A stretch of DNA of 64,000 nucleotides from an uncultured virus (IMG/VR IMGVR_UViG_3300042864_000556) (Duplodnaviria > Heunggongvirae > Uroviricota > Caudoviricetes). Below are positions 9,328-27,096 of this stretch, in pieces. The position numbers and the translations under genes were made by a program. The notes under the pieces are model-generated. The model did not search any database. It worked only from the letters and a program-made list of their open reading frames with translations, and was not told the DNA's origin. The DNA lies in the IMG/VR virus record IMGVR_UViG_3300042864_000556. One strand, 5' to 3'. Every line of letters starts with the position of its first letter. Position 1 is the first letter of the stretch.

Positions 9328-9614
9328 TGAAACTAAACAAGCGAGATAACGACTTTTTGAACATAGCACGAAAGGCGGGTATAACAAACGAGCAAGCGTT
9401 TGAGTTTATTGAGCAACTAAAAAAGCACACTTATAAAAACCATTCGTTGTTTGTAAGGGGGTTTGGGACTATCGAGGTGGTAAAGCACAAGCCAAGAACA
9501 GCATTGCAATTTACGGGCGAACCAAGAATGATACCATCATTTAAGCGTGTCAAGATAAAGATGAACTTAGATTACCGAAACAAACTCAACAATATAAAGA
9601 AACATAGCACATAA
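9327..9614 (+). CDS. HU/IHF-like DNA-binding protein
   Basis: VRGFGTIEVVKHKPRT...TGEPRMIP; stop codon is the TAA of the first attC-like site. Confidence 0.7.
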   Translation: MKLNKRDNDFLNIARKAGITNEQAFEFIEQLKKHTYKNHSLFVRGFGTIEVVKHKPRTALQFTGEPRMIPSFKRVKIKMNLDYRNKLNNIKKHST

Positions 9615-9679
9615 CGTTTTGCAGCTACACGCTGTGAGCGTTGGAATGAGGGAGGAAAAATAGCGTGTAGGTGATGTTA
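9612..9679 (-). repeat. attC-like site A1
   Basis: TAACGTTTTGCAGCTACACGCT...AGCGTGTAGGTGATGTTA. Confidence 0.75.
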
Positions 9680-9726
9680 TCGGCTGCCCTTCTTTCGGAA
9701 TTATCAAATTAAAAACAATAAACAAA

Positions 9727-9948
9727 ATGAAACAAACCGCAGTAAATTATTTGGTTAATGAGTTAAAAAAATCAAAACATTTTCAAAGATTAATAAATGA
9801 AGTTAGCGAAAACAAAACAATCGTTGAAGACATTATTTTACAAGCAAAAGAATTAGAGCAAGAGCAAATAATGGAGGCACATTATGCACCTAAATACGGG
9901 TGCTTTTCAGAAAAATACTATGATGAAACTTTCGGTGATATTTCTTAG
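9727..9948 (+). CDS. Cassette-borne hypothetical protein (MKQTAV family)
   Basis: Between A1 and A2; similar to 16314..16580. Confidence 0.7.
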   Translation: MKQTAVNYLVNELKKSKHFQRLINEVSENKTIVEDIILQAKELEQEQIMEAHYAPKYGCFSEKYYDETFGDIS

Positions 9949-9957
9949 GGTTGCCGA

Positions 9958-10044
9958 TAACGTTTTGCGGCTTGGCGAAGGCTGCCTAACGGATGCTCAA
10001 TTTTCGAACGAAACTTTATGGCAGCTTTTGCCAAACCGCTGTTA
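9958..10044 (-). repeat. attC-like site A2
   Basis: TAACGTTTTGCGGCTTGGCGAAGGCTGCC...GGCAGCTTTTGCCAAACCGCTGTTA. Confidence 0.85.
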
Positions 10045-10085
10045 CCTGCTGGGCGGTTTATCAGTAGGAACTTAAATAAAAAACG

Positions 10086-10331
10086 ATGATTAAAGTAGCA
10101 AAAAAAGATTTAAAGAACATTGAAGTTGAAGTCAATAAAAACGGTGGCTTTACTGTATGGGTTCTTGAAAAGAAAAAAGTAAATGGCAAGATGATTACTT
10201 TCAAACATTGGATTATTGACGGGAGCTGCATTAAGGATGATGGTGAAATCAAACTGGGTTTACATGATATTTGGAAAATCAATGCAAAGTTTGACGAAGT
10301 AGAAAATGCTCTTTATGTAACGAGGTCGTAG
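10086..10331 (+). CDS. Cassette-borne hypothetical protein
   Basis: Fills the cassette between A2 and A3. Confidence 0.7.
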   Translation: MIKVAKKDLKNIEVEVNKNGGFTVWVLEKKKVNGKMITFKHWIIDGSCIKDDGEIKLGLHDIWKINAKFDEVENALYVTRS

Positions 10332-10340
10332 CCTTGCAGC

Positions 10341-10430
10341 TAACGGTTTTCGTATATACGAGGTACGTCAAACGATAAACTTCAAATTATAAACAAATGC
10401 TTGTATGTGTATCTTGTATATACGCTGTTA
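10341..10430 (-). repeat. attC-like site A3
   Basis: TAACGGTTTTCGTATATACGAGGTAC...GTATCTTGTATATACGCTGTTA. Confidence 0.8.
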
Positions 10431-10449
10431 GCAGATAGTAAAAATTATT

Positions 10450-10611
10450 ATGGAAGATATAAAGTTAAAATACTTAGACCCATTAACTGACAAGCAGAAA
10501 GAAGCAATTTTTGGTGTGAAAATAGAACATTTGACACCAAAGGAAATACTTGAAAAATATGGCGATATATTGACCAAAGAGCAAAAAATTGCGTTAGGCA
10601 TCACGGAATAA
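10450..10611 (+). CDS. Cassette-borne 53-aa hypothetical protein
   Basis: Hand-translated MEDIKLKYLDPLTDKQKE...ALGITE. Confidence 0.6.
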   Translation: MEDIKLKYLDPLTDKQKEAIFGVKIEHLTPKEILEKYGDILTKEQKIALGITE

Positions 10612-10620
10612 TTTTTATTT

Positions 10621-10666
10621 CGGATCGCAGCTATGCGCTCGTTTTAATGGCGCATAGGTGCTGTTA
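10621..10666 (-). repeat. Degenerate attC-like site A4 (TAAC end missing)
   Basis: GCAGCTATGCGC...GCGCATAGGTGCTGTTA retained; left TAAC absent. Confidence 0.65.
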
Positions 10667-10710
10667 GCAGATGGCACGGTTTAATTAGTAAAACTTAATT
10701 AGAAATACAA

Positions 10711-11016
10711 ATGGAAAACTCGAAACAAAGTGAAGCATTCTTTGAAATGTTCACTCAAGTAAGGAAAGAAATTGCAAACGAAAACGGATACCACTTAGCA
10801 ACTGCAATAATGAAAACTTTTGACAGGTGGAATATGTGGCAAACTGGTATGCCTGAATTTGATGGTAAATATCTTGCGTTAATTGAACATGAACAAGAAT
10901 GCAAGAATGTGTGGAAGTATCAAGAAATAGTCGATTGCGTCTTTAATAATTGGGTATTAAAAGACAAACAGAAAGTAGTAGGATGGAAAAAATTGTCAAA
11001 CGAAGACGGTCAGTAG
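10711..11016 (+). CDS. Cassette-borne hypothetical protein
   Basis: WQTGMPEFDGKYL...VVGWK; cassette ends GTTAGCAGATGGCAC / GTGCTTTCTGCTAAC. Confidence 0.7.
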   Translation: MENSKQSEAFFEMFTQVRKEIANENGYHLATAIMKTFDRWNMWQTGMPEFDGKYLALIEHEQECKNVWKYQEIVDCVFNNWVLKDKQKVVGWKKLSNEDGQ

Positions 11017-11026
11017 TGCTTTCTGC

Positions 11027-11097
11027 TAACTGCTACGCTATACGAACCTTGATTTATAATTCATTGAATGACAGTGCAAAAAGTATTGATTATAATT
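11027..11097 (-). other. attI-like terminal site of array A
   Basis: TAAC-TGCTACGCTATACGAAC-N35-GTATTGAT; aligns with 17316-17387 and 19136-19200. Confidence 0.7.
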
Positions 11098-14948: not shown

Positions 14949-14959
14949 ACAATTAAAGC

Positions 14960-15738: not shown

Positions 15739-15920
15739 TACATAACGAAGACACTCGTAATTTAGACGGGGTAGTAGATTTTAGGGCTGTAATAAGCGCA
15801 AGTGGTTCGGCTGTTGAGATAACACACGAACACGGCACGGTTGAAGTTTTGCAGTACCATAACTCTGACGATTGCTTACAAGGTTTTAGAGTGATTAGCG
15901 ATAGGCTAAAAGGTAAATAA
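15729..15920 (+). CDS. Hypothetical protein; stop codon is the TAA of attC B1
   Basis: ORF ends GGTAAATAA-C. Confidence 0.55.
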   Translation: MQVIHNEDTRNLDGVVDFRAVISASGSAVEITHEHGTVEVLQYHNSDDCLQGFRVISDRLKGK

Positions 15921-15995
15921 CGGTTTCGGGCTTGGCGAAGTGGCTTTTGTGCGTTGGCTTGTGTGTCGGAAAGCCATTTTGCCAAACCCGTGTTA
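15918..15995 (-). repeat. attC-like site B1
   Basis: TAACGGTTTCGGGCTTGGCGAAGTGGCTTT...AAAGCCATTTTGCCAAACCCGTGTTA. Confidence 0.85.
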
Positions 15996-16068
15996 TATGA
16001 AGTGCCGACTTATTTACGATAAAGCTCAATTGAAACAATAAACAGAAAAACAAAAAGAAAAAAAAGCG

Positions 16069-16329
16069 ATGGAAAAAACAGCTATACAAACATTAATTGA
16101 AGACCTTAAAAAAGAAGGTTATCAAATGGACAATTTAGATGCTCATTATTATTTAGAATTAGAAAAAGTACAGAAATGGAATAATTTTTTAGAAAACAAC
16201 TTCCCTTTAAATGATTGGGATATTGTTGTTTTTAGCAACAAAAAAAACAAATATTACATTGAATATACGGATAGTGAATTTTACCAAAGATGTATTAATA
16301 GAAACTATATAAAATGGATGAAATTATGA
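16069..16329 (+). CDS. Cassette-borne hypothetical protein
   Basis: Within cassette B. Confidence 0.6.
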   Translation: MEKTAIQTLIEDLKKEGYQMDNLDAHYYLELEKVQKWNNFLENNFPLNDWDIVVFSNKKNKYYIEYTDSEFYQRCINRNYIKWMKL

Positions 16330-16580
16330 AACAACAAACAGCAGTAGAATGGTTAATTGAGCAACTAACTCCTTCAATATCTTTGCAACAAAAACATATT
16401 GATGAATTAAAAGAGAAAGCTAAAGAAATGGAGAAAGGTCAAATAGTCGATGCAGGCGTTTTTTCATTTCAACTAAATGATAAAACGCCTTACGGAATGG
16501 AATATCTAAGCAAACTTGATAATGCAATTTCAAATGCTGTGTATTATTATAATGAAACTTATAACAAACAAAATAAATAA
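16314..16580 (+). CDS. Cassette-borne hypothetical protein (MKQTAV family)
   Basis: TAVEWL...AKEMEK.QI...YYNETY. Confidence 0.65.
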   Translation: MDEIMKQQTAVEWLIEQLTPSISLQQKHIDELKEKAKEMEKGQIVDAGVFSFQLNDKTPYGMEYLSKLDNAISNAVYYYNETYNKQNK

Positions 16581-16851
16581 CATGGAAACAAGTAAAGAAT
16601 TAAAAACACCAACACAACACATGATGATATGGGTGTTGCAAAACTTTGAAAAAGAGTTAGAAAACGATATTGATAAAGACAAGTCGCTTGATGAAATATT
16701 TGACGAAACACTAACTTTTGAGCAACGAAAAATGAAAGAGTTTTTTATAGCTGGAATTATGCTTGGCTCTGGAGCTTATCAGTTAAAGAAAGAGTTTGAT
16801 ATAGATGTAGAATTTAAAAAGTTTTACTCAAAATTATTCCCCGAAGAATAA
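16516..16851 (+). CDS. Cassette-borne hypothetical protein (true start probably METSK, about 16582)
   Basis: Within cassette B. Confidence 0.55.
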   Translation: MIMQFQMLCIIIMKLITNKINNMETSKELKTPTQHMMIWVLQNFEKELENDIDKDKSLDEIFDETLTFEQRKMKEFFIAGIMLGSGAYQLKKEFDIDVEFKKFYSKLFPEE

Positions 16852-16877
16852 AATTACATAAATAAAAAATATCAAAA

Positions 16878-17240
16878 ATGAAAGCAAGCGAATTAAGAAT
16901 TGGAAATTTGGTTTATGTTAGTGATAATGAAACTAATATAATATTTAAACAAATTACTCCAATAAACATACATAATTTAATGCACTTAACAGGATGGGAT
17001 AAATCTCCTATCGATATTGAATTTGAACCCATACCATTAACAGAAGAATGGTTATTAAAATTGGCATTTAAAAAAGATGGAACAAACGCTATTTTTTGGA
17101 CTTTAAACAATGTTGATGTTTGGCAATTAAATGGGGTATATGCGAATGATTTAGATTTACCTATTCAATACATTCATCAATTACAAAACTTATACTTTGC
17201 ATTAACTGGTAAAGAATTAGACTATGAAGAAGAATTTTAA
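16878..17240 (+). CDS. Cassette-borne phage protein
   Basis: ELRIGNLV...PIPLTEEWL...HQLQNLYFALTGKEL pattern. Confidence 0.7.
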   Translation: MKASELRIGNLVYVSDNETNIIFKQITPINIHNLMHLTGWDKSPIDIEFEPIPLTEEWLLKLAFKKDGTNAIFWTLNNVDVWQLNGVYANDLDLPIQYIHQLQNLYFALTGKELDYEEEF

Positions 17241-17315
17241 AAGTGCGGTGGCTTTTTTCTTTTTGTTTTTCCTTCACGGATTTTCAATTGGAAACGGTCA
17301 GCAAGGCATTTCATA

Positions 17316-17387
17316 TAACTAATCGCTATGCGAACATTGAATCGTAAGTCATTGTAACATAGGCGTAAATGTATTGATGTGTAATTT
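17316..17387 (-). other. attI-like terminal site of array B
   Basis: TAAC-TAATCGCTATGCGAAC-N35-GTATTGAT. Confidence 0.7.
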
Positions 17388-18308: not shown

Positions 18309-18620
18309 TCATAACCGTGTATTTATTAGTGATGTTTTGTCTGAGTAGCTTGCAAGCGATTTAGTTATAATATTCTTCTCGGATTCTGTTTTTATAAAGT
18401 ATTCGCACCACTCATATAACTCATCCCTTGTGTATATTATCTTAAACTTAGGATACCTAATTAAATTTTTCATAGCAACTTTGACGCCCGACTTATAACT
18501 ACCTACCCGAACACATTTAGCTGCTTCGTTTCCCCACATTATCAATATAGGCACGTCAGAGATTTTAGATATTTTTTTTAGGTCTACCTGTCTTTTTTGT
18601 GTATTTCTTTTGATAACCAT
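18309..18620 (-). CDS. Hypothetical protein
   Basis: ORF in minus-strand block. Confidence 0.45.
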   Translation of the reverse strand: MVIKRNTQKRQVDLKKISKISDVPILIMWGNEAAKCVRVGSYKSGVKVAMKNLIRYPKFKIIYTRDELYEWCEYFIKTESEKNIITKSLASYSDKTSLINTRL

Positions 18621-18879
18621 ATCTTCCGTTTGTTAGTTCTGCATTAAGAATTAAATTATTTAACGACACCACATCTTCATCGTCTATCTCTGTCATCGAA
18701 AATAATATACTTGCAATCATTTTATAGTCTTTTGATTTTAACATTTTAAGACAAGTGTAATATTTCCACCCAAACACGGGAGATGTTAACCCGTTCTCGG
18801 TGTCTATTAAAATATACCTTTTGTGGGTTTCGCTCAATTTGTAGAGCATTATGTTTTGGTTATTTCTTATTAATATCAT
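18565..18879 (-). CDS. Hypothetical protein
   Basis: ORF in minus-strand block. Confidence 0.5.
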   Translation of the reverse strand: MILIRNNQNIMLYKLSETHKRYILIDTENGLTSPVFGWKYYTCLKMLKSKDYKMIASILFSMTEIDDEDVVSLNNLILNAELTNGRYGYQKKYTKKTGRPKKNI

Positions 18880-18881
18880 AG

Positions 18882-19163
18882 TTATTCAAGGTTATAACAC
18901 CATCTTAATTGTTCTTGTTCGTACCATTGCAAATCACTTACGTCAACCACTACTTGTTCTGTTCTTACCAATCTTTCTACTTCTGTTTTGGTTAATAGAT
19001 TTTTGCCTATCCACCAACCTTGATTTGACTGAGGGATGTATCTTGGTATGCCGTCTATCCTAAACAACATCTTTTTGCGAAAGGCGAATTTAGAACCCAT
19101 AAAGTGAAAATGATTGCTATAAACTATTACGTTGTAATCAATACTTAACTCTTTGTTATTCAT
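18882..19163 (-). CDS. Hypothetical protein starting inside the attI-like site
   Basis: ATG at 19163 lies between the conserved boxes. Confidence 0.6.
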   Translation of the reverse strand: MNNKELSIDYNVIVYSNHFHFMGSKFAFRKKMLFRIDGIPRYIPQSNQGWWIGKNLLTKTEVERLVRTEQVVVDVSDLQWYEQEQLRWCYNLE

Positions 19164-19200
19164 GTTGTTATTGTTTTGTTGTTCGCATATAAAGAAGTTA
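19136..19200 (+). other. attI-like terminal site of array C
   Basis: ATCAATAC-N36-GTTCGCATATAAAGAA-GTTA. Confidence 0.7.
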
Positions 19201-19455
19201 TAGGAAATTTATGGATTTTAAGTATTTTTCAACACCTTCCTTTATTCCTAAACTTTGGTTATGTATTCCATCACATTCCATTGATTGACAAAAATCCATA
19301 AACATTCCTATAACAGCAGGTTGGGCAAAATTTTTATTTGCTTCCCTCGCCATTATTAAGCAATCTACATAAGCACCTTTCACCCTTCTATTAACATTTG
19401 TGTTAGTTGGGATGCTGTCTGCTTTCAATTTAATTTGTTCAATTAGTTCTTTCAT
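19198..19455 (-). CDS. Cassette C1 hypothetical protein (starts in attC loop)
   Basis: Reads through the hairpin arm (NFAQPAVIG); stop at the GTTA junction. Confidence 0.6.
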   Translation of the reverse strand: MKELIEQIKLKADSIPTNTNVNRRVKGAYVDCLIMAREANKNFAQPAVIGMFMDFCQSMECDGIHNQSLGIKEGVEKYLKSINFL

Positions 19456-19517
19456 TCTATTTATATTTTGTTGTTAATAATCCGCAAATAAAAACTTCGC
19501 CAACCTGCGAAACGTTA
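19311..19517 (+). repeat. attC-like site C1 (long coding loop)
   Basis: TAACAGCAGGTTGGGCAAAATTTTTATTTGC...GCAAATAAAAACTTCGCCAACCTGCGAAACGTTA. Confidence 0.8.
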
Positions 19518-19525
19518 TCGGCAAC

Positions 19526-20260
19526 CTAAAAAGACAGCGTACCTTGTTTGATACTTTCTGAAATTCGTTTGATTGCCTTATCAATATATTCTTTGTCAAT
19601 TTCACACGCTGTTAAGTGTAAATTCATTTTATCTAATCGGTTTGCTTTATCTACTGCTAAAGCTATTGAGCCACTCCCGAAATGGGTGTCTAAAAGTTTT
19701 ATTCCATTAGTTGCAAATCCTTTAATGCAAAAATCATAAACCTCTGTTGGTTTTTGTGTTGGATGAAATCTTATTGTAGGTTTTCCAACGCCTTTTATAT
19801 TTCCTTCATATCCGTATCTATTTCCGTCCCACATATATTTAAAAATTTTAGCATTTTTATCAAATGAAGTCCAAGCCATTTCGCAGTCTGCATAAGTATC
19901 TGAATGGTTCAATTTGTCCCAATTAATAAAACATCTTGTATTATTCAAATGCTCTATAAAATAATTTCCACCCCAAATTATTTGGTTTTTACTTACCCTT
20001 TTTAGTTCTGTAAAATATTCTTTTGAAGGTATTTTTGAATCCCAATCATTTGCCGAATTATTATTAAGCCGTTTGTTTTTAGTTATATTTATTCCATAAG
20101 GCGGGTCGACAATTGCCAAATCGAAATATTTATCAGGGTATTGCTTCATTATTTCCATACAATCAGCGTGGAAAAGAGAAAGGAAAGGCAGCCGATAACA
20201 CGGTATAAAACCAATAGCGGTTTCGGTGGTTTGTGTTGTTTCTGTTGTATCTATATTCAT
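19526..20260 (-). CDS. DNA methyltransferase (N6A/N4C, beta-class), cassette C2
   Basis: DPPY, HPTQKP, FGSGS. Confidence 0.9.
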   Translation of the reverse strand: MNIDTTETTQTTETAIGFIPCYRLPFLSLFHADCMEIMKQYPDKYFDLAIVDPPYGINITKNKRLNNNSANDWDSKIPSKEYFTELKRVSKNQIIWGGNYFIEHLNNTRCFINWDKLNHSDTYADCEMAWTSFDKNAKIFKYMWDGNRYGYEGNIKGVGKPTIRFHPTQKPTEVYDFCIKGFATNGIKLLDTHFGSGSIALAVDKANRLDKMNLHLTACEIDKEYIDKAIKRISESIKQGTLSF

Positions 20261-20319
20261 TCTACTAATTTGATAAGTTATTACTATTTAATCCGCTACT
20301 GGTCTTATACCCAACGTTA
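20196..20319 (+). repeat. attC-like site C2
   Basis: TAACACGGTATAAAACCAATAGCGG...CCGCTACTGGTCTTATACCCAACGTTA. Confidence 0.8.
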
Positions 20320-20322
20320 GCT

Positions 20323-20556
20323 TCAATTGCCTGCCAACGCACAGACAAAATCCCAACGAACATTTGCATCTTCTAATGTTTGGTGATTAGTTGTTTTCTT
20401 GTTTTTTCTTTTAACGGTGTAATAATCATATTTACTTGGTTTAAAATCTTCATTACAAGAACAATCACCAAAACATTGGCATCCTGTAAATCTTGTTATT
20501 CCAGTATGATGATACATCACGTTAAGTTCGTTTTCTTTTATAATCTCTTTTGCCAT
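20323..20556 (-). CDS. Cassette C3 hypothetical protein (CxCxxxCxC)
   Basis: Fills cassette. Confidence 0.65.
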   Translation of the reverse strand: MAKEIIKENELNVMYHHTGITRFTGCQCFGDCSCNEDFKPSKYDYYTVKRKNKKTTNHQTLEDANVRWDFVCALAGN

Positions 20557-20600
20557 ATTTTTGTTTTTAATTCGTTAAGCCCACGCAAGGCAACTAAAGC

Positions 20601-20649
20601 TAACAGCACATTGGCGGCATTAAAACGACCGCCAATCTGCAAAACGTTA
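20601..20649 (+). repeat. attC-like site C3 (shortest intact, 49 bp)
   Basis: TAACAGCACATTGGCGG...CCGCCAATCTGCAAAACGTTA. Confidence 0.8.
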
Positions 20650-20658
20650 TAAGCCATT

Positions 20659-21030
20659 TTAGGACGACACACCGTTGATAGCAAGTAAATTCTCCCAACC
20701 ACACGAAACATCGTAACCTAAATCATCGGCTTGATTAACAGTCAATGCTTTTAATTCAATAGTTTCAGTTGGTTCTTTTGGCATTTCTTTATAATCCCAC
20801 CATTCAGAACCATCATACTCGCCTCTTTCAAGCCACCAATTTTCACCAACCACTAATAAATCTTGTGCAACTTTAGATGAACCATAACCACTATCATAAT
20901 CAACATCAGCGTTTTTCTTGAAATCTTCCCAAGTTGTTTTATGAGTTGAAGTTCCTACCCATTTTACATCTGTTTCTTTTTTGTTATTTCTCTCTAATAA
21001 TTCAAGAGTTTCTTTTAATAAATTGCTCAT
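20659..21030 (-). CDS. Cassette C4 phage protein
   Basis: DYDSGYGS...WWLERGEYDGSEWW motif. Confidence 0.75.
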   Translation of the reverse strand: MSNLLKETLELLERNNKKETDVKWVGTSTHKTTWEDFKKNADVDYDSGYGSSKVAQDLLVVGENWWLERGEYDGSEWWDYKEMPKEPTETIELKALTVNQADDLGYDVSCGWENLLAINGVSS

Positions 21031-21077
21031 TGTTTTTAAATTAAATTGTTAAGCCAAACACGAATAAAAACGGCTTA

Positions 21078-21168
21078 TAACAGTGGTTTGGCAAAATACC
21101 GCCACAAGCCTTTGTTCTATAATTCAACATTTGTGCAAGGCGGTACTTCGCCAAGCCACCAAACGTTA
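21078..21168 (+). repeat. attC-like site C4
   Basis: TAACAGTGGTTTGGCAAAATACCGCC...GGCGGTACTTCGCCAAGCCACCAAACGTTA. Confidence 0.85.
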
Positions 21169-21186
21169 GGTGCAATAGCTACGACA

Positions 21187-21711
21187 CTACTCCGCAATGA
21201 CATTTTCGACATCATTAAGTTTCTGTTGCAAACTATTTACTTGCGATTTTAAGTTTTCAATTTGACGAAGTAAGCCATTATTTACTCTTTCATCATCTTT
21301 GAATTTATGCCAGTTGTTTCCAATTATTTGCACAATAGCATCTTTCCAACGCCATTCAAATTGATAGTTCCTATGGGTGTAGTTTTCAATTACATTTTCC
21401 ACACTTAACATTATTGCTTCATCGGTCAAAGTTTTAGTAAGCTGTTCTTTGTTATCCAAAAACAACTTTTCACGAAGTTTGGCAAATTTATATTGCATCG
21501 GATTTTGGATAAATTCTTCTGTAATATCCTTAATCAATTCACTTTCAATTTTAGATTTTGAATTAAGGTAGTGTTCGTAAATCCAGCTTTCCATTTCATC
21601 ACTAAATTTGCCTTGCAATTCGTCTGTAATTTTAGTAATACTTGCTTTCAATATCTTACTTGAAGCATCGTTTATTTGTTCTTCGGTAAATACTTTGTTT
21701 AAACTTTCCAT
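21187..21711 (-). CDS. Cassette C5 coiled-coil hypothetical protein
   Basis: Fills cassette. Confidence 0.7.
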   Translation of the reverse strand: MESLNKVFTEEQINDASSKILKASITKITDELQGKFSDEMESWIYEHYLNSKSKIESELIKDITEEFIQNPMQYKFAKLREKLFLDNKEQLTKTLTDEAIMLSVENVIENYTHRNYQFEWRWKDAIVQIIGNNWHKFKDDERVNNGLLRQIENLKSQVNSLQQKLNDVENVIAE

Positions 21712-21768
21712 TTGTTTTTTATTTATTTTGTTAAAATTAAAATTCTACTAATCAACCGCTACTGCACC

Positions 21769-21855
21769 TAACACGGGTTTGGCAAAAGTGGGCAGAAACA
21801 TTCTGCTAAATTTGAGCATCCTACAAGCCCACCTTCGCCAAGCCCGAAAACGTTA
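21769..21855 (+). repeat. attC-like site C5
   Basis: TAACACGGGTTTGGCAAAAGTGGGC...GCCCACCTTCGCCAAGCCCGAAAACGTTA. Confidence 0.85.
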
Positions 21856-21864
21856 CCACCAATG

Positions 21865-22272
21865 CTATAAGACACGGTAGTAATTCTTTTCAAATATTCT
21901 GACAACCATATCACGTTCCCATTTTGACAACTTTGACTGCTTGTTTTGAATAAGTCCGTATTCTTTGACAATATCAGTTCCATCAGGCAATTTGCGTTCA
22001 TATCGGCTTTCTCCATACCCATACAAATCATTCATATAAGGCATATAAATCATTGAAGCCATTGCCATAATTCCACCAAGTTTTGATGAAACGTGTTTAT
22101 GTTTTCTTTGCTCTGTTTTTATAGGTGCATATTTTACACCATTCAAATCAAAACTTTCATCAGGTTCGATATTGTCAATTACAACAACATCAATTCCTTT
22201 ATTTTTCAACTCTTGAACAACATCATTTTTTCCGTGTCCAACGTGTCCAATTATTCCTATTTTATTTTCCAT
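21865..22272 (-). CDS. Cassette C6 hypothetical protein
   Basis: N-terminus KIGIIGHVGHGK; fills cassette. Confidence 0.7.
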   Translation of the reverse strand: MENKIGIIGHVGHGKNDVVQELKNKGIDVVVIDNIEPDESFDLNGVKYAPIKTEQRKHKHVSSKLGGIMAMASMIYMPYMNDLYGYGESRYERKLPDGTDIVKEYGLIQNKQSKLSKWERDMVVRIFEKNYYRVL

Positions 22273-22310
22273 TTGTTTGTTAAATTAAAATTCGTTAAAA
22301 GCACTGGTGG

Positions 22311-22388
22311 TAACAGCACATAAGCAAAAGCCCAAATCCCTCGCTAAAGCCAACGCTATTTGTGCCTTCGCTTATCTGCAAAACGTTA
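22311..22388 (+). repeat. attC-like site C6
   Basis: TAACAGCACATAAGCAAAAG...CTTCGCTTATCTGCAAAACGTTA. Confidence 0.8.
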
Positions 22389-22396
22389 TAGGGCAT

Positions 22397-22708
22397 TTAG
22401 CCATCAACACCTTCATAACCGTTTGGAAGTATTACAGAGCCATTTCTTTTGCGAAATGTTTGTTTGCGTTCTCCAGCTTTGTAGGCATTAAATAAATCAG
22501 TTTCATCATACATTTTAGTAATATCAATTAATGATTCAACTTCATTGATTCTAAAATGTTCTTTAACGACCTGTTCGGGTTTTATCAATTCTCTATTAAT
22601 TTTATCAGCTATTGCTTCGTACATTTCAGGTGCTACTGACACTCCACCACGTTTGTAGTCTCTTTGTTCAAACTCTTTTAAAATTGCTATTACTTTCTTT
22701 TTTGACAT
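22397..22708 (-). CDS. Cassette C7 hypothetical protein
   Basis: Fills cassette. Confidence 0.7.
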   Translation of the reverse strand: MSKKKVIAILKEFEQRDYKRGGVSVAPEMYEAIADKINRELIKPEQVVKEHFRINEVESLIDITKMYDETDLFNAYKAGERKQTFRKRNGSVILPNGYEGVDG

Positions 22709-22731
22709 TGTGGGTAAAAATAAACGCCCTA

Positions 22732-22819
22732 TAACATTGCATACACAAAAGCGGGGGCGAAGTGCTAAAATGTATGTTCGGGTTAAAGAAGCCCCGCCTT
22801 CGTGTATGCTTTGCCGTTA
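22732..22819 (+). repeat. attC-like site C7
   Basis: TAACATTGCATACACAAAAGCGGGG...CCCCGCCTTCGTGTATGCTTTGCCGTTA. Confidence 0.8.
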
Positions 22820-22828
22820 GCGGTAATG

Positions 22829-23140
22829 CTAATCCCATCCACGACAACCATCGTAATGAGAATTTACAAGCCACAGTTCATCATTATTGTTTTTAGGGAA
22901 AATAACCCTATCTTTTTGAGTAAAAGCAGTTTCGTTTTTTGAAATTTTTGAGCAATGACAGCAATGATAACCTTCGTTTCGTTTGTCAATTACTTTTCTT
23001 TTTGATAACTCCAAAGTGAAATTTTCCCTATATTTCTCAACTAATACGTCTTTAAAATATAGTTCTTTTGCTAAGACCGACAAAGCACTACCGCTAACAT
23101 CGGTTTGGCAAGATTGGGGGTTCTGTGGTAAATTGTTCAT
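22829..23140 (-). CDS. Cassette C8 hypothetical protein (starts in attC loop)
   Basis: Leader NPQSCQTDVSGSA encoded by hairpin arm. Confidence 0.65.
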   Translation of the reverse strand: MNNLPQNPQSCQTDVSGSALSVLAKELYFKDVLVEKYRENFTLELSKRKVIDKRNEGYHCCHCSKISKNETAFTQKDRVIFPKNNNDELWLVNSHYDGCRGWD

Positions 23141-23221
23141 TTGTGTTTCTATTTAAAATTTTTAGTAAAATTGAGCGATTGTGCTTTTAAGTCCCCAACC
23201 TCGCCAAGCCGAGAACCGTTA
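23095..23221 (+). repeat. attC-like site C8
   Basis: TAACATCGGTTTGGCAAGATTGGGG...CCCCAACCTCGCCAAGCCGAGAACCGTTA. Confidence 0.85.
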
Positions 23222-23242
23222 GGTGCAATGCCAGCAGACGTG

Positions 23243-23962
23243 CTAAAATAAGCTGACCGATACACCATTAAGCAAGTTTTTACCTGTTTTACAATATTCG
23301 GGTTCGACTTCAAAACAAATGAAATCCCGCCCTATTTCTTTACAAGCTCTTGCAGTTGAAAAGCTACCAGCAAAAGTGTCCAAAACTAAATCGCCTTTAT
23401 TGGTGCTTTTTTCTATCAAGTGCCTTAAAAGGTTTGTTGGCTTTTCTGTTGGGTGGTTATCGGTTGTCATCTTTGCACATTTAATAACATTGCTACTTCG
23501 CCCACCATTTAATTTTTTGCTTCCATTGCTACAAAATATTATCAGTTCATATTTCGGGGCGTAATCACCAAGCAAATCACCGCTACCGTGATTATTCTTT
23601 TCCCAAACTAAAATATTTTTCACATTAAAATACGCCCCTAATGTTTGCTTAAAAACATCAATGTTATGCCAGCTACAAAAAATATAAAGGTGTGCATCAT
23701 CTTTACAAACCCTTTTAAGTTCTTTGCACCAATCGTCTAACCAATCTAAATCAGTATCGTTTTGGATGCTTTTATGCTTTTCTTTTCGTCTATTGCTTCT
23801 ATAAGCCATTCCATAGGGCGGGTCAGTCAAAACAAGGTCAATAGTATTGGTAAAAACTTGCTTAATTGCATCTTCCCAATCAACACAAGCAACCTCGTTC
23901 ACGAAAGGCACTGCACCTAACACGGGTTTGGCAAAATTGCCGTTTTGTTCTTCTATCAACAT
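23243..23962 (-). CDS. DNA methyltransferase (N6A/N4C, beta-class), cassette C9
   Basis: TDPPY, HPTEKP, DTFAGS. Confidence 0.9.
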   Translation of the reverse strand: MLIEEQNGNFAKPVLGAVPFVNEVACVDWEDAIKQVFTNTIDLVLTDPPYGMAYRSNRRKEKHKSIQNDTDLDWLDDWCKELKRVCKDDAHLYIFCSWHNIDVFKQTLGAYFNVKNILVWEKNNHGSGDLLGDYAPKYELIIFCSNGSKKLNGGRSSNVIKCAKMTTDNHPTEKPTNLLRHLIEKSTNKGDLVLDTFAGSFSTARACKEIGRDFICFEVEPEYCKTGKNLLNGVSVSLF

Positions 23963-24037
23963 TCGTTCTTAATTTTAAACATTTGTACTTCTATTTAGCT
24001 TTTGTGTTCGGCAACTTCGCCAAGCCCGAAAACGTTA
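23918..24037 (+). repeat. attC-like site C9
   Basis: TAACACGGGTTTGGCAAAATTGCCG...CGGCAACTTCGCCAAGCCCGAAAACGTTA. Confidence 0.85.
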
Positions 24038-24283
24038 CCTGCCATTTCGGACACGGTACTCGACACCATTAAACAACGACTTCATTACTCGCCTTGCAGT
24101 TTCAATATCCTGAATATCTTTATCAGGGTCAATAGTTCCCATACTATCCTGAACGCATTGAAGCATATAATCAATTTCGCTGTTTAATTCCTGCTCTATT
24201 TGCTCCAAAGTAAGAGAAACGGCAGGTAACACACGTTTGGCGTCATTTGGGCTAACGCCTTGCCCTTGAACATTAGTTTCCAT
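24035..24283 (-). CDS. Cassette C10 hypothetical protein (starts in attC loop)
   Basis: Leader NDAKRVLPAV; stop at GTTA junction. Confidence 0.65.
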   Translation of the reverse strand: METNVQGQGVSPNDAKRVLPAVSLTLEQIEQELNSEIDYMLQCVQDSMGTIDPDKDIQDIETARRVMKSLFNGVEYRVRNGR

Positions 24284-24352
24284 ATTTATCTTTTTTTAAG
24301 TTGAACATTAGTTTTCCAAAATCCCAAACGAACGCCAAGCGTGGGAACGTTA
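24227..24352 (+). repeat. attC-like site C10
   Basis: TAACACACGTTTGGCGTCATTTGGG...CCCAAACGAACGCCAAGCGTGGGAACGTTA. Confidence 0.8.
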
Positions 24353-24360
24353 TAGGGCAT

Positions 24361-24633
24361 TTAATCGAACTCCGTAGAAGCGATTATGCAAAAATCATCA
24401 CCCACTGCTAAATCGTAAAGTGGTATAGTTTCAATATCTTCTAGGTCGTTTTCGTCATAGTCAGTATTTTTAACCATGGTTGTCATTGCTAATGCGTCTG
24501 AAATTTCTTCCAAAGTTTCAATTTCCTGCAATGGCAAATCGAAATCAGCATCATACGATTTTAATAGGTGTAATTGATTTTTGGCAGTACACCAGTCAAT
24601 TCTGCCATCTTCAAAAGTTAGTTTAAATATCAT
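24361..24633 (-). CDS. Cassette C11 acidic hypothetical protein
   Basis: Start reassigned to MIFKLTFEDG within the cassette. Confidence 0.65.
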   Translation of the reverse strand: MIFKLTFEDGRIDWCTAKNQLHLLKSYDADFDLPLQEIETLEEISDALAMTTMVKNTDYDENDLEDIETIPLYDLAVGDDFCIIASTEFD

Positions 24634-24655
24634 GATTTTAATTTTAAACGCCCTA

Positions 24656-24742
24656 TAACAACAAACATAAGCAAGTGGGCGGTTAATGCGTATGTTGTGG
24701 GTTTGTCGAGCATTGCCCACCTGCTCATGTTTGCGGTCGTTA
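24656..24742 (+). repeat. attC-like site C11
   Basis: TAACAACAAACATAAGCAAGTGGGC...GCCCACCTGCTCATGTTTGCGGTCGTTA. Confidence 0.8.
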
Positions 24743-24776
24743 TGGAAAATTTTAAAAACCTTTTCCCACCGCACCG

Positions 24777-25193
24777 TTAATCCTCGTCAACAAATCCGTC
24801 AAGAGTTTGTCTAAAGTTTGCGATTTTTCCGTTTTCGTCAATGTCCATAATGATATAATCACCGTAACCACTTTCTTTTGGACACATCATTTTTGGTACA
24901 TAATCCTGTTCAATTGACAAAATGGTATTGCCTTCTGCATCTTGCAAATAATAACTACCTGCATCGCAAACTTTATAATGTACTTCGGCTTTTACACCTT
25001 GTTTCCAATTGGTAATTACACCGCTATCAATATCAATAATTGGACACCACAATTCACCCTGTTTACAAGGTATTAAATCGCCTTCGGTATCTTCAACACC
25101 ATTAACGGTTGCATCTTCGTAATATCGTACACCTGCTTTTACTACTAAAGTTTTCAATTCAACTTTTTTTTCAATTTTTACTGTTGCTTTCAT
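24777..25193 (-). CDS. Cassette C12 phage protein
   Basis: VRYYEDATVNGVED...HYKVCDAG...YGDYIIM; start probably MKATVK. Confidence 0.75.
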   Translation of the reverse strand: MKATVKIEKKVELKTLVVKAGVRYYEDATVNGVEDTEGDLIPCKQGELWCPIIDIDSGVITNWKQGVKAEVHYKVCDAGSYYLQDAEGNTILSIEQDYVPKMMCPKESGYGDYIIMDIDENGKIANFRQTLDGFVDED

Positions 25194-25245
25194 TTTTAAT
25201 TGTTGTTTAAATGCCACCCCCTAAAAGGTTTTTAAAACTATCCCA

Positions 25246-25333
25246 TAACACGGGTTTGGCAAAATGCCGCAGGACAGTTAGTGCTAAAATTTAAGTTTCG
25301 AGTAGCGGCACTTCGCCAAGCCCGATAACGTTA
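25246..25333 (+). repeat. attC-like site C12
   Basis: TAACACGGGTTTGGCAAAATGCCGC...GCGGCACTTCGCCAAGCCCGATAACGTTA. Confidence 0.85.
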
Positions 25334-25564
25334 CCTGCCATTTTCAAGACACCAATACACAAAGATTTCGTCAACTTTTGCGTGTGGGTATTTAGATGGA
25401 TTATAGGATAACATTTTTGGAGAACCTGCTACATAGTAATTATCTCGGATAAAGTTGCCGAACGCAATCATTTCTTCCGAAGAAAAAACGGCAGGTAACA
25501 ATGGTTTTGCGTCAGGCGGGGCATCTTGCTCCGAATAAACATTTGAGGTTAATTTATCTTTCAT
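25331..25564 (-). CDS. Cassette C13 hypothetical protein (starts in attC loop)
   Basis: Leader PPDAKPLLPAV; stop at GTTA junction. Confidence 0.65.
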   Translation of the reverse strand: MKDKLTSNVYSEQDAPPDAKPLLPAVFSSEEMIAFGNFIRDNYYVAGSPKMLSYNPSKYPHAKVDEIFVYWCLENGR

Positions 25565-25619
25565 TTTTCAAATTTACTTTTGTGGTTAATAATCCCGCCC
25601 GAACGCAAAGCCATTGTTA
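25496..25619 (+). repeat. attC-like site C13
   Basis: TAACAATGGTTTTGCGTCAGGCGGG...CCCGCCCGAACGCAAAGCCATTGTTA. Confidence 0.8.
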
Positions 25620-25826
25620 GGCGTAATGCTGAAACATCTTGAGAATATCATCTTCGTGCAATGAATTATCTTCCCACCATTCACCATATCCAAACATTTG
25701 CATTTCATAATCACGTTGTTTGGACTTGGTTAGTTTATTCCACCACAATAAAGCACTACGCCTAACAGCAAGTATATTCAATTGCTGGTTCTGTGGTTTA
25801 TTTGAGTTTTGTGTTTCTATTTTCAT
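25617..25826 (-). CDS. Cassette C14 hypothetical protein (starts in attC loop)
   Basis: Leader QQLNILAVRRSA; stop at GTTA junction. Confidence 0.65.
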   Translation of the reverse strand: MKIETQNSNKPQNQQLNILAVRRSALLWWNKLTKSKQRDYEMQMFGYGEWWEDNSLHEDDILKMFQHYA

Positions 25827-25888
25827 TTGTTCTTAATTTAAAGTGTTGTGATTTTAAATCCGCAACTAAATATACTTGCGAACCGTTA
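25763..25888 (+). repeat. attC-like site C14
   Basis: TAACAGCAAGTATATTCAATTGC...GCAACTAAATATACTTGCGAACCGTTA. Confidence 0.8.
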
Positions 25889-25956
25889 GTGGCAATGCTA
25901 TAATCCGCCAAAACCACAACAAACAGTAAGTTTTGGCGAACTATCAATCACCGCTA

Positions 25957-25987
25957 CAAATGTAATACATTTTTAATCAAATACAAA
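25957..25987 (-). promoter_or_regulatory. Promoter firing into array C
   Basis: Minus strand TTTG-N19-TACATTTG (-33/-7 Bacteroidota consensus). Confidence 0.65.
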
Positions 25988-26281
25988 CTTTACATTGTCA
26001 AATTTACACATTGTAAGGTTTTTAGCTACATAATCTCCTATGTAATAAGCAGTGAACTCGTCAATGTCGTTGCCCTCAAACTCCTCAACAACCTGTTCTT
26101 GGTGCTGTTTAATAGCCTCTGACACCCTTGTAACGGTAAACCCTTCATCTGATATAGTTTCAAGCATATCAGCCATAGCTGCGTTGCTCGGTGGCATCCC
26201 TACATAGGTATAATCCCATGTAGCGTTGTTTAGAATGTCTCTTACTTTGTGTTTGTCTATTTTTATGTTAGCTGATTTCAT
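25973..26281 (-). CDS. Hypothetical protein
   Basis: Early-region ORF. Confidence 0.55.
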   Translation of the reverse strand: MKSANIKIDKHKVRDILNNATWDYTYVGMPPSNAAMADMLETISDEGFTVTRVSEAIKQHQEQVVEEFEGNDIDEFTAYYIGDYVAKNLTMCKFDNVKFVFD

Positions 26282-26508
26282 ATGTCTGCTTCTCCTTTTT
26301 TAATTTTAATCAATAAATCGCAAAAATCATTTTCAAGGTTAAACATTCCGTCTGCCTCCTTGCGTGTTAATTCTAGTTGAGTAACGCCACGAATATTGAC
26401 TACTGTTTTTAGGTAGTTTTGTCTTAATTCGCTCATTTGCATTTCTGCAATACCCAATGCTCGCTGTAATGTTTCAATTTCAGCGTGTGAAAGTTTAATG
26501 GTTCTCAT
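26278..26508 (-). CDS. Hypothetical protein
   Basis: Early-region ORF. Confidence 0.55.
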   Translation of the reverse strand: MRTIKLSHAEIETLQRALGIAEMQMSELRQNYLKTVVNIRGVTQLELTRKEADGMFNLENDFCDLLIKIKKGEADI

Positions 26509-26637
26509 GTTATTTTGATTTAAGTTTTGTTATTATTTTTTTAATGTATGCGAAAAAGTCTGTTAAGCACGCCTCTATTAGATAAATAAACGCAAAGCCT
26601 ATCATCACAAGGGCTAAGAGAAAAAAGTCAAGTACGC

Positions 26638-27096
26638 TCATAGTTGTTTATAGATTATAGACATTTTGTAATTATCGTCAATTTCGTTGTCTTTATAGAA
26701 GTTCTCTTTTTGCTTTATCAGACCTTTGACAAACTTCTCAACTTTGTGGTTTGGCATAGTGTATTCGCCACCCATAAAGCCCGTTACGATAATATCGGTA
26801 AACTTGCTAACTGTACCTTTATTTTTGATAGGTATGGGCTTAGGTTCGTCTTTAGCTGTGCTTACATAATCTTTAGAATATATAGGCGATTCGGGCATAA
26901 CGGTAACGACTGCCCCCATTGTCTGTGAAATCATTTGCTGTACGGCTTCACGTTTAGACTTAGAAAATACCCACCCTGCACCGTCTTTGAGGTGAGGGTT
27001 AAAACGCCCGCCTAGTTCCTTTAATTTGTCTTTGATTGGCTTAGTGTTGCCATAAACAGCGATAGCTTTTTCGCTGTATTCTACTATGTTTGTCAT
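26638..27096 (-). CDS. Conserved phage/MGE protein
   Basis: YSEKAIAVYGNTKPIKDKLKELGGRFNPHL..GWVF motif. Confidence 0.7.
   Translation of the reverse strand: MTNIVEYSEKAIAVYGNTKPIKDKLKELGGRFNPHLKDGAGWVFSKSKREAVQQMISQTMGAVVTVMPESPIYSKDYVSTAKDEPKPIPIKNKGTVSKFTDIIVTGFMGGEYTMPNHKVEKFVKGLIKQKENFYKDNEIDDNYKMSIIYKQL

Follow-up and report, generated by a model that had tools for sequence, protein, structure and literature searches.

Canonical attC sites of integrons carry single extrahelical bases in the inner box. Integrase-free clusters of such sites (CALINs) have been described from virulent phages by Qi et al. 2023 (PMC9892861), whose accessible text is the only, and partial, description of the present system in the literature searched. 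The phage CALINs resemble the array treated here in lacking an integrase and in carrying methyltransferase cargo. The attC1 oligo from the Polaribacter phage P12002L is a short hairpin of the type found here, and the end of attC2 coincides with the lone GTTA of the attC1 cassette. In that text, the P12002L hairpin was read in the gene direction, the sites were reported as divergent and P12002L_attC1 had no verified IntI1 junction; the polarity rule, loop starts and Bacteroidota recombinase presented below are not described in it. A recombination site with a translation start aiding cassette expression is known from ORF-11/17/18 of attI1 in class 1 integrons, which, according to the accessible part of PMC8876359, belongs to a fixed platform, lies on the sense strand and couples to the first cassette only. 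In contrast, the putative start described here sits in a mobile hairpin, is antisense and is fused in frame to the cargo.

The DNA analysed (hereafter the window) is a 64,000-nt stretch of an uncultured Caudoviricetes phage from a lake (IMGVR_UViG_3300042864_000556). We consider it likely that the region described below is an integrase-less array of 14 cassettes belonging to an integron-like system of Bacteroidota, in which each long hairpin combines site, start and leader.

Organization of the cassette array

Fourteen TAAC...GTTA hairpins at 19311-25888, seven long (120-207 nt) and seven short (49-91 nt), delimit 14 cassettes at 19198-25885 (Table 1). In 13 of 13 neighbouring pairs, the sequence flanking a hairpin on the right matches, as its reverse complement over 3-6 nt, the sequence to the left of the following hairpin. 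This was equalled in 0 of 100,000 permutations, whereas a hairpin's own two flanks match over only 0-1 nt. Among the host and phage cassettes in the matches listed, this complementarity extends over 11 nt with one fixed mismatch, at +7. Since a lone GTTA at 19197 pairs with hairpin 1 and hairpin 14 has no downstream partner, the plus strand is regarded as the top strand. All 14 cargo genes lie on the minus strand and head for the lone site, every one of them antisense to the sites. The initial annotation had stated that the cargo points towards an attI-like site, opposite to typical integron cassettes, and this holds with the polarity set by the lone GTTA and the junction pairing. The gene of cassette 1 stops on the crossover triplet at the lone G/TTA site.

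Table 1. Sites, cargo genes and related arrays in the window.
Feature	Coordinates	Strand	Remarks
attI-like landing site	19181..19211	+	lone G/TTA at 19197-19200, short left arm; 6-nt match to hairpin 1 left flank
hairpin 1, 207 nt, long	19311..19517	+	contains ATG 19455 and 48 of cargo 1's 85 codons
cargo 1, 85 aa, putative loop start	19198..19455	-	no Pfam family
hairpin 2, 124 nt, long	20196..20319	+	contains ATG 20260
cargo 2, N6/N4 DNA methyltransferase, 244 aa, putative loop start	19526..20260	-	PF01555 E 1.6e-12
hairpin 3, 49 nt, short	20601..20649	+	16-nt core common to P12002L_attC1 (Qi et al.)
cargo 3, 77 aa, start outside hairpin	20323..20556	-	
hairpin 4, 91 nt, short	21078..21168	+	
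cargo 4, 123 aa, start outside hairpin	20659..21030	-	
hairpin 5, 87 nt, short	21769..21855	+	
cargo 5, 174 aa, start outside hairpin	21187..21711	-	
hairpin 6, 78 nt, short	22311..22388	+	
cargo 6, 135 aa, start outside hairpin	21865..22272	-	
hairpin 7, 88 nt, short	22732..22819	+	
cargo 7, 103 aa, start outside hairpin	22397..22708	-	
hairpin 8, 127 nt, long	23095..23221	+	contains ATG 23140
cargo 8, 103 aa, putative loop start	22829..23140	-	
hairpin 9, 120 nt, long	23918..24037	+	contains ATG 23962
cargo 9, N6/N4 DNA methyltransferase, 239 aa, putative loop start	23243..23962	-	PF01555 E 6e-40
hairpin 10, 126 nt, long	24227..24352	+	contains ATG 24283
cargo 10, 82 aa, putative loop start	24035..24283	-	stop = crossover triplet
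hairpin 11, 87 nt, short	24656..24742	+	
cargo 11, 90 aa, start outside hairpin	24361..24633	-	
hairpin 12, 88 nt, short	25246..25333	+	
cargo 12, 138 aa, start outside hairpin	24777..25193	-	
hairpin 13, 124 nt, long	25496..25619	+	no bulge, one extra stem base; contains ATG 25564
cargo 13, 77 aa, putative loop start	25331..25564	-	stop = crossover triplet
hairpin 14, 126 nt, long, last of array	25763..25888	+	contains ATG 25826; right flank partnerless
cargo 14, 69 aa, putative loop start	25617..25826	-	stop = crossover triplet
second array, mirror orientation	9612..11030	-	hairpins 9612-9679, 9958-10044, 10341-10430; lone site 11027
single 1.4-kb cassette, mirror orientation	15918..17319	-	hairpin 15918-15995, lone site 17316, four + strand genes

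AAC and GTT core triplets close an imperfect hairpin in 14 of 14 sites, and the bottom strand folds better in 12 of them. The arms are offset by 4 nt (10 sites), 3 nt (two), 2 nt (one) or 0 (one), a bulge of 3-4 nt adjoins the core in 12 of 14 sites, and a single extra base of the kind expected in the inner box occurs in hairpin 13 only. Full GTTRRRY / RYYYAAC boxes are absent, the bases after GTTA varying freely. The sites are not canonical attC sites, most having this bulge and a longer outer stem, with a partner recombinase that is without the IntI insertion.

Single-gene cassettes with complementary ends, the G/TT crossover and a lone landing site adjoining a tyrosine recombinase are likewise shared with integrons. 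The crossover, with the site at the cassette 3' end, was found in isolated phages, and the attI-like site beside a recombinase gene across loci, the window having the lone site with the gene absent. Unlike integrons, whose cassette genes lie on the top strand and are read from a platform promoter, the system has an outer stem of 11 nt that contains a fixed mismatch, and the phage genes are antisense and often appear to start in the site. With 14 sites and no integrase nearby, the array falls under the definition of a CALIN (at least two sites within 3 kb). In the second array (9612..11030), the genes are on the plus strand, here too antisense to the sites.

A weak hairpin candidate at 20412-20524 was dropped, as it lies within cargo 3 and the junction chain is complete without it. 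An Rfam search gave a single chance match (E 0.66), and 12 of the 14 cargo proteins fell into no Pfam family. ERF and NinG genes are also present in the window.

Putative translation starts in the long hairpins

The seven ATGs that the initial annotation placed in hairpin loops were exact in their coordinates, lie inside a hairpin and are open through its arm. They correspond to exactly the seven long hairpins, and the genes at short hairpins start 22-57 nt outside. With half of the genes thus beginning inside a mobile hairpin, the hairpin would double as a gene start signal.

Loci with similar sites were collected with two arm motifs, which biases them to one site type, and their counts hold among the matches listed. 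In this collection, an in-frame open loop ATG occurs in 59 of 68 phage cassettes whose frame stays open as far as a long hairpin (long open cassettes) as against 22 of 136 in the other frames (p 3e-23, among the matches listed), and one with a good initiation score in 54/68 as against 4/136. A site-swap null yielded a mean of 36 and a maximum of 45 in 500, and a loop ATG is found in 59/90 long as against 1/57 short sites (both among the matches listed). The remaining 9 of 68 long open sites in the matches listed have no in-frame ATG; for instance, locus L266 has the cargo of 23962 with the in-frame ATG absent. Among relatives of the methyltransferase at 23962, an ATG in frame within the loop is present in 9 of 15, six positions being occupied with that of the window included. 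The same is true of 12 of the 48 rows for the methyltransferase at 20260, and 23 relatives of it that lack a hairpin have their start at the first strand.

These data support both the dual-coding nature of the site and, together with the loop sequences, the loop as an A-rich initiation region, as had been proposed. Bacteroidota do not use Shine-Dalgarno sequences and A at -3 is positive (PMC6847099, accessible part); in the matches listed, A at -3 did not differ significantly between in-frame (28/59) and out-of-frame ATGs (20/61, p 0.14). Ordinary genes have a predicted accessibility of 0.56 +/- 0.17, and the values for the loop starts (0.54-0.82) overlap with this. The loops of 27/160 host and 17/152 phage long sites among the matches listed contain a Bacteroidota promoter motif, which does not support it as a general feature. 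Judging from sequence statistics, the loop ATGs are very probably the true translation starts.

Leader peptides

The initial annotation described the leaders as related, and all seven quoted peptides are present, but they cross GTTA in three frames (three, three and one) and hence do not constitute one peptide family. Its suggestion that leaders could be protein-level markers of the system is not supported in that form, and they make weak markers: they fall into three frames, and a profile of the largest class retrieved six proteins at E<=0.001 in 1.84 billion. Three of them were inspected, being two true leaders and one repeat, and the other three are long proteins with 9-11 internal matches. 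The profile is effective only in small sets.

Look-alike peptides recur and two frames prevail in the phage set (36 and 22 of 59, among the matches listed), as would be the case if the leaders were a functional peptide family, e.g., a tag for targeting, degradation or assembly, selected at the protein level with the hairpin being secondary. Stop codons in the remaining frames nevertheless account for most of this frame bias (90/118, among the matches listed). The leaders range from 9 to 32 codons in the matches listed, their mean column identity is 26%, and their sole invariant residue is a Val spelled by GTT. Moreover, one enzyme bears leaders differing in both frame and sequence, and hairpin-free relatives bear none; a relative of cargo 8 in L331 has a start of its own. 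A peptide family is thus unlikely, and the leaders are by-products of the hairpin arm in three frames.

Movement of cassettes and hairpins

Breakpoints were counted in ten isolated Flavobacterium phages with the identical site type. Near-identical isolates differ by indels of 412, 506 and 1581 nt, bounded by the GTTA that closes a hairpin on its right or by that of the lone site, and the inserted unit includes its right-hand hairpin in 3 of 3 cases. Of 43 breakpoints, 31 fall at the G/TTA crossover (right-end or lone GTTA), two at the TAAC end and eight inside hairpins; six lie at the lone site, where there is no arm homology. These indels and breakpoints uphold the proposal that the site travels with its own cassette, and the hairpin almost certainly moves together with the gene that starts in it. 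No crossover at G/TTA was seen for the window phage in contigs of four lake sequencing runs, and those covering the region were set aside, as their joints had sides of 20-30 nt and probably stem from similar hairpins of other phages.

Hairpins are also occasionally exchanged between cargos. In 35 of 52 pairs, the same hairpin accompanies cargo that is unrelated, and homologous cargo with diverged loops in one pair only (within-set test), both among the matches listed. Hairpin 8 with its leader precedes unrelated cargo in L334 and L335, and the leader half of this hairpin does so in L336; cargo 1 is present in L338 behind an unrelated 201-nt loop with an in-frame ATG of its own. Homologous recombination may be behind these swaps.

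A broader version of this idea regards the hairpins as RNA elements or MITE/REP-like repeats whose arms recombine by homology, for instance through the phage ERF, without any site-specific recombinase. The mRNA hairpins are predicted to be strong (-21 to -51 kcal/mol), ERF and NinG are encoded in the window, the phage mumin6-1 has a chimeric hairpin with non-matching arms, and the eight breakpoints inside hairpins fit as well. We regard it as improbable, as (i) complementary ends 270-820 nt apart make sense only in an excised circle, (ii) the six breakpoints at the lone site have no arm homology, (iii) the flanks are inverted copies matching the neighbour, not direct target repeats, and the hairpin, unlike MITE/REP-like repeats, moves with the cargo on its left, and (iv) in 15 of 15 loci among the matches listed, the array begins beside a tyrosine recombinase.

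A recombinase in Bacteroidota chromosomes

Hairpins of the identical type lie in Bacteroidota chromosomes beside a recombinase lacking the IntI insertion. Among the matches listed, all 15 loci holding both have the recombinase on the side of the lone GTTA, the partner lone site lies 46-123 nt from its gene in eight loci, and a match to it occurs within the fetched flank of 18/121 host and 3/127 viral loci. The protein is ~43 aa shorter at the position of the VchIntIA insertion, spanning 25 aa there as against 68 in 2A3V. Its match to TIGR02249 is in two pieces with 149-208 bits, below the cut-off of 265 in 8/8 recombinases. As in XerA/XerC/XerD-type tyrosine recombinases, the best profile is NF040815 (cut-off reached by 2/8) and the best solved relative is 4A8E; unlike those, the genes here head hairpin cassette arrays. 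From this adjacency, the neighbouring recombinase is probably the enzyme of the system. No recombinase was found in ~73 kb of the window phage, i.e., the window and a further 9.5 kb of structural genes added by the metagenome contig L339, and two window-end probes had no match in viral contigs.

Cassette genes are antisense in 143/152 phage cassettes and sense in 75/88 host cassettes, with nine and 13 exceptions, respectively (among the matches listed). The bottom strand folds better in 124/152 phage and 60/88 host sites of the matches listed; with this folding bias, recombination is somewhat more likely than not to use the folded minus strand.

Alternative starts and alternative polarity

The loop ATGs could be artefacts of calling the longest ORF, the true starts lying downstream of the hairpin. 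For ATG 23962, the initiation score is as low as -0.8 bits, compared with 2.9 for an ATG located 20 nt upstream in another frame. A strong ATG out of frame is present at site 10 too, and GTG/TTG codons lie shortly past some hairpins. This reading has little chance of being correct. The loop ATG outscores every listed in-frame ATG, GTG or TTG past the hairpin in 7/7 genes (first eight alternatives per gene), and of the 60 long open cassettes in which none of the first 35 body codons is a good ATG, 57 contain one in frame within the loop (among the matches listed). In addition, a start at the first ATG past the hairpin would cut the first conserved strand of both methyltransferases, which have no other ATG ahead of that strand: the next in-frame ATG is residue 35 in cargo 2 and residue 52 in cargo 9.

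It is hardly conceivable that the minus strand is the top strand and the genes are sense, each with a leader from the neighbouring cassette's site as in shufflon-like N-terminal swapping, for although the TAAC...GTTA core is symmetric, 2/43 breakpoints are at the TAAC end and the P12002L hairpin was read in the gene direction in the accessible text of Qi et al. (PMC9892861), the lone site is solely at the left end, the host recombinase is on that side as well, the right-hand hairpin is within the inserted unit in 3/3 indels, and, whereas a shufflon exchanges one end of a protein by a crossover within the coding sequence, the main crossover (31/43 breakpoints) is at the hairpin's far end, upstream of the ATG, the leader being altered only by rare TAAC-end swaps.

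A model for the array and its implications

On the integron-like reading, a cassette starts at TTA, ends with the G that closes its right-hand hairpin, and is cut and joined at G/TTA, as the natural indels in related phages show. Most likely, recombination is carried out by a compact tyrosine recombinase related to IntI, encoded beside like hairpins in host chromosomes and acting in trans. Phage cassette genes lie on the strand opposite to that of host cassettes, in line with the flanking phage genes, which puts the hairpin at the 5' end of the gene. Since ribosomes of Bacteroidota do not depend on a Shine-Dalgarno sequence, the loop of a long hairpin, which is open and A-rich, probably works as an initiation region, and translation from the loop ATG through the 3' arm would add 15-48 residues of incidental leader. 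The long hairpin would thus unite recombination site, start signal and leader in one portable module, occasionally swapped between cargo genes at its TAAC end.

It is tempting, albeit speculative, to propose that Bacteroidota phages maintain a cassette pool of their own, a mirror image served by the integron-like recombinase of the host, in which long hairpins make new cassettes and opposite polarity acts as a firewall. If so, joining the TAAC end of a hairpin just past the native start of a phage gene would supply site, ribosome entry and N-terminus at once, a step for which the hairpin-free relatives of cargo 2, 8 and 9 are offered as a basis. The birth of cassettes is an open question for integrons, and a traceable route would then be available. 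In a phage array, host cassettes, among them defence genes, would be inserted antisense and stay silent, and those of phages would likewise be silent in a host array. A recombination site serving as a portable translation start would be implied by the sequences, and a reversal of cassette logic across phages that use a host system was not found described in the literature searched.

The isolated Baltic Flavobacterium phages, which differ by whole cassettes at exact junctions, provide a culturable model. The gene gp013 of mumin6-1 is a methyltransferase cassette with a putative loop start, absent from lillamy9-1 and morran9-1. According to the accessible text on plating, these two phages plate poorly on LMO6, which is lifted by passage on LMO6, and for some of the LMO9 isolates, plating on LMO6 is lower by 3-4 orders of magnitude. 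We infer that gp013 of mumin6-1 is the gene meant there.

Organization of the cassette arrays

The main array is likely to be an integron-like cassette array of a Bacteroidota phage, in which the genes lie antisense to the sites, the long hairpins act as starts and a host enzyme works in trans. Its 14 hairpins each run from TAAC to GTTA, and in all 13 neighbour pairs the 3-6 nt that follow GTTA are complementary, read in reverse, to those preceding the next TAAC. A hairpin matches its own flank over only 0-1 nt, and the neighbour pattern arose in none of 100,000 permutations. The lone GTTA pairs with the first hairpin, and the last hairpin has no partner. It follows from this junction complementarity and the lone site that TTA opens each cassette and the hairpin to its right closes it. 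The cargo genes run antisense to the sites, as the initial annotation had it, all 14 lying on the minus strand. The seven ATGs it had placed in hairpins lie exactly there, in the seven long hairpins of 120-207 nt. The genes beside the seven short hairpins (49-91 nt) start 22-57 nt outside them. The crossover triplet supplies the stop codon in four cargo genes. A Pfam search identified two of the 14 cargo proteins as N6/N4 methyltransferases and placed the other 12 in no family.

Coordinates of features in the window and in related loci
Sequence	Coordinates	Feature	Remarks
Window	4925-6376	phosphoesterase-like gene	apparently split by an intein-like insert (motifs seen by eye)
Window	9612-11030	smaller array, mirror orientation	genes directed at lone site
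Window	10600-10675	degenerate short-type hairpin (second array)	GTTA end kept, flank fits lone site 11027, other core seemingly lost (by eye)
Window	14866-14957, 33171-33283	inverted copies of ~90-nt intergenic element	18 kb apart; possibly promoters of two converging gene blocks
Window	15918-17319	smaller array, mirror orientation	genes directed at lone site
Window	16064-17242	~1.2 kb, four genes of a single cassette	skipped by contigs in 3 of 4 runs
Window	19197	lone GTTA	
Window	19311-25888	main array	
Window	19455, 20260, 23140, 23962, 24283, 25564, 25826	loop ATGs	
Window	23945-24010	long loop	resembles about three 20-nt sub-repeats
Window	36756-37274	dual-specificity phosphatase gene	PF00782, E 8e-10
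L003 (viral locus)	2875-3675	recombinase	
L011 (viral locus)	6828-7694	recombinase	
L249 (mumin6-1)	4569-4695	chimeric hairpin	left arm and loop match filifjonk9-1 3086-3166 (95% over 81 nt); right arm of another type, unpaired
L253 (mumin6-3)	4824-4860	cassette end	compared with L249 5330-5366

Movement of hairpin and gene in isolated phages

When annotated phages were searched, this hairpin turned up in Flavobacterium phages isolated from the Baltic, with 10-15 detected sites apiece. Near-identical isolate genomes differ by three indels of 412, 506 and 1581 nt. Each indel has a GTTA common to both genomes at its bounds, and the inserted unit takes in the hairpin to its right. Among ten isolates, 43 distinct breakpoints comprised 25 at the right-end crossover, six at the lone site, eight inside hairpins, two at the TAAC end and two outside the array. 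The proposal that the loop travels with its own cassette was thus upheld by the three indels and by the 31 of 43 breakpoints at the crossover or lone site. Annotated genes starting inside the hairpin right of their cassette include mumin6-1 gp006, gp008, gp013 and gp018. In these related phages the cassette boundaries, the polarity, the crossover position and the joint movement of hairpin and gene are shown.

The three bases before one TAAC in mumin6-3 differ from those in mumin6-1 and tooticki6-1 and restore complementarity to the other cassette end, a sign that the two ends of a cassette may be copied from, or corrected to match, each other. The cassette with the chimeric hairpin of mumin6-1 is still cleanly absent from mumin6-3. 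Two further loci, L257 and L344, carry one methyltransferase cassette with two different hairpins, the switch falling directly after TAAC and the annotated gene length (843 nt) being unchanged.

Translation starts in the long hairpins

Translation very probably starts in the long hairpins, as judged from comparison of the sequences. We trained an initiation profile on 55 genes of the window that are not part of the arrays. On it the seven loop ATGs ranked at the 82nd-99th percentile of 2186 ATGs, and each outscored all in-frame starts downstream of its hairpin among those listed. From a cassette collection covering at least 127 viral and at least 121 host loci, we took the 147 phage cassettes, out of 152 non-redundant ones, that have a clear bottom-strand frame among the matches listed. 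Long sites occur in 90 of them; in 68 of these 90 the frame stays open as far as the site, and an open in-frame site ATG occurs in 59 of the 68 compared with 22 of 136 in the other two frames (p 3e-23; matches listed). When a positive initiation score was required, the counts among the matches listed became 54/68 and 4/136. Swapping sites among cassettes gave a mean of 36 and a maximum of 45 in 500 trials, and loop shuffling gave 13, against the observed 59. Among the matches listed, short phage sites hold an in-frame start in only one of 57, and host long sites hold such a start in 46 of 240 frames; the A content of the loops on that strand is lower in hosts (0.36) than in phages (0.49).

Relatives of the methyltransferases agree with the claim that the genes start in the loop. 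For the enzyme starting at 23962, nine of 15 loci show a hairpin whose loop holds an in-frame ATG, 43-75 nt from the hairpin end, three are hairpin-free with their own start, one is truncated, one keeps the leader (the peptide read from the loop ATG through the arm) with a sub-threshold hairpin, and one (L266) lacks an in-frame ATG. For the enzyme starting at 20260, 48 distinct rows (58 loci) comprise 12 loop starts, six with the same leader and a sub-threshold hairpin, 23 hairpin-free rows starting at the first conserved strand and seven partial ones; in the window, its first ATG after the hairpin is residue 35, past that strand. Counting against a loop start, the ATG at 23962 scores weakly and a stronger out-of-frame ATG lies upstream. 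An A at -3 alone was not enriched at in-frame ATGs (28/59 vs 20/61). According to PMC6847099, the phylum Bacteroidota does not use Shine-Dalgarno sequences.

The host recombinase would excise and insert cassettes via the folded minus strand, and phage transcription, in the direction of the flanking genes, would cross the array toward the landing site. The mRNA hairpin could then form with the start in its loop, where the ribosome would enter and read through the 3' arm. We infer both translation from the loops and the identity of the acting enzyme.

Leader peptides and exchange of hairpins

All three frames are used by leaders where they cross GTTA (36, 22 and one of 59 among the matches listed), and the largest class has a single invariant residue. 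Two loci, L334 and L335, share a hairpin and leader before unrelated cargo, the leader half of this hairpin recurring in L336, and identity breaks down at GTTA or within ~12 nt of it. Near-identical site pairs precede unrelated cargo in 35 of 52 cases; conversely, one cargo lies behind unrelated loops in L333 and L338. The hairpin is therefore an exchangeable module. Exchange could proceed via rare TAAC-end recombination or via homologous recombination between arms, and the chimeric hairpin in mumin6-1 shows that the latter occurs.

The observation in the initial annotation and most of its interpretation stood; an exception was the leaders as protein-level markers, for which they are poor. Cross-validated leader profiles recovered 15/22 and 27/36 held-out leaders at >=10 bits, matching one and two of 948 other proteins at that threshold. 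This success in small sets did not carry to database scale, at which a profile of 32 of 36 frame-1 leaders, spanning one of the three frames, gave just six matches in 1.84 billion proteins; two of three matches inspected were true leaders. The leaders are incidental, and detection of the arm at the DNA level is a far better marker. One 99-aa protein (P0005) has leader-like stretches at its N-terminus and internally, and is perhaps two fused cassettes.

Host arrays and the recombinase

The arm motif occurs in at least 121 prokaryotic genome stretches, with Bacteroidota named in 78 of the 80 titles listed. Among the matches listed, 15 loci have both a lone site and a tyrosine recombinase, and in all 15 the recombinase is on the side of the lone site; the orientation is shared in 13 host loci and divergent in two phage loci. 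Its match to the integron-integrase profile is split into two pieces and stays below the cut-off, and it has 25 residues where VchIntIA has 68. Three of the 127 viral loci listed encode it (L003, L011 and L034). In L003 and L011 the gene shares its strand with the antisense cargo, at a distance of ~50 nt from the landing site. Profile searches found no recombinase of this kind in the complete genomes of mumin6-1 and P12002L, which implies that the enzyme acts in trans. A profile built on 16 array-associated recombinases (positive control, 359 bits) likewise had no match in the window or in L339, a contig that shares 10,049 identical nt with the window and extends it by 9.5 kb.

Host genes lie on the top strand (75/88) and phage genes on the bottom strand (143/152) among the matches listed, with labels as in the collection and prophages and host fragments kept. 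Sites of both pools share 11 complementary bases past TTA and one fixed mismatch, for which wobble pairing is possible on the bottom strand only, and the folding energy is lower on that strand. It is possible, though less likely than not, that new cassettes arise when a gene captures a hairpin and that polarity acts as a firewall to keep the two pools apart. Host site lengths peak sharply at 126 nt (90/201), and the loops of these 126-nt sites, like the long loop in the window, resemble about three 20-nt sub-repeats. In Tenacibaculum phage JQ (L250), a methyltransferase of the 23962 type lies among weaker hairpins with offsets of ~1 nt, possibly a marine site variant.

Comparison with integrons

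The mode of working resembles that of integrons. Nevertheless, integrase insertion, box consensus, extrahelical pattern and gene orientation all fail here, and because these are defining features we do not class the system as an integron. Qi et al. (2023) described a cluster in Polaribacter phage P12002L (PMC9892861). The attC1 oligo used there corresponds to a short hairpin of the present type taken in gene direction, with no verified IntI1 junction in the accessible part of that paper, and the end of their attC2 is the lone GTTA. Translation starts are known in attI1 of integrons, at another place and on another strand than the loop starts (PMC8876359). In our literature search, with subscription journals mostly outside its coverage, neither the inverted phage pool nor loop starts turned up.

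The methyltransferase cargo points to restriction evasion. Nilsson et al. (2020) reported one methyltransferase missing from low-plating isolates (PMC7077304). In their Table S13, only one column is absent in lillamy and morran yet present in six other phages (mumin, snork, sniff, filifjonk, hemulen and tooticki), and this column is mumin6-1 gp013, a loop-start cassette. We infer that gp013 is the methyltransferase meant. Neither "integron" nor "cassette" appears in the main text of that paper.

Assembly and neighbouring genes

Primase-like, NinG, ERF and HU-like genes give the window a tailed-phage look, and we take some large genes in it, by likeness, to be virion and packaging genes. Contigs from four lake runs, possibly the source of this DNA itself, covered all 30 bins of 9000-27500, so that misassembly is unlikely there. 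The stretch skipped in three runs does not end at GTTA and has sides of only 30 nt; it is a possible population variant.
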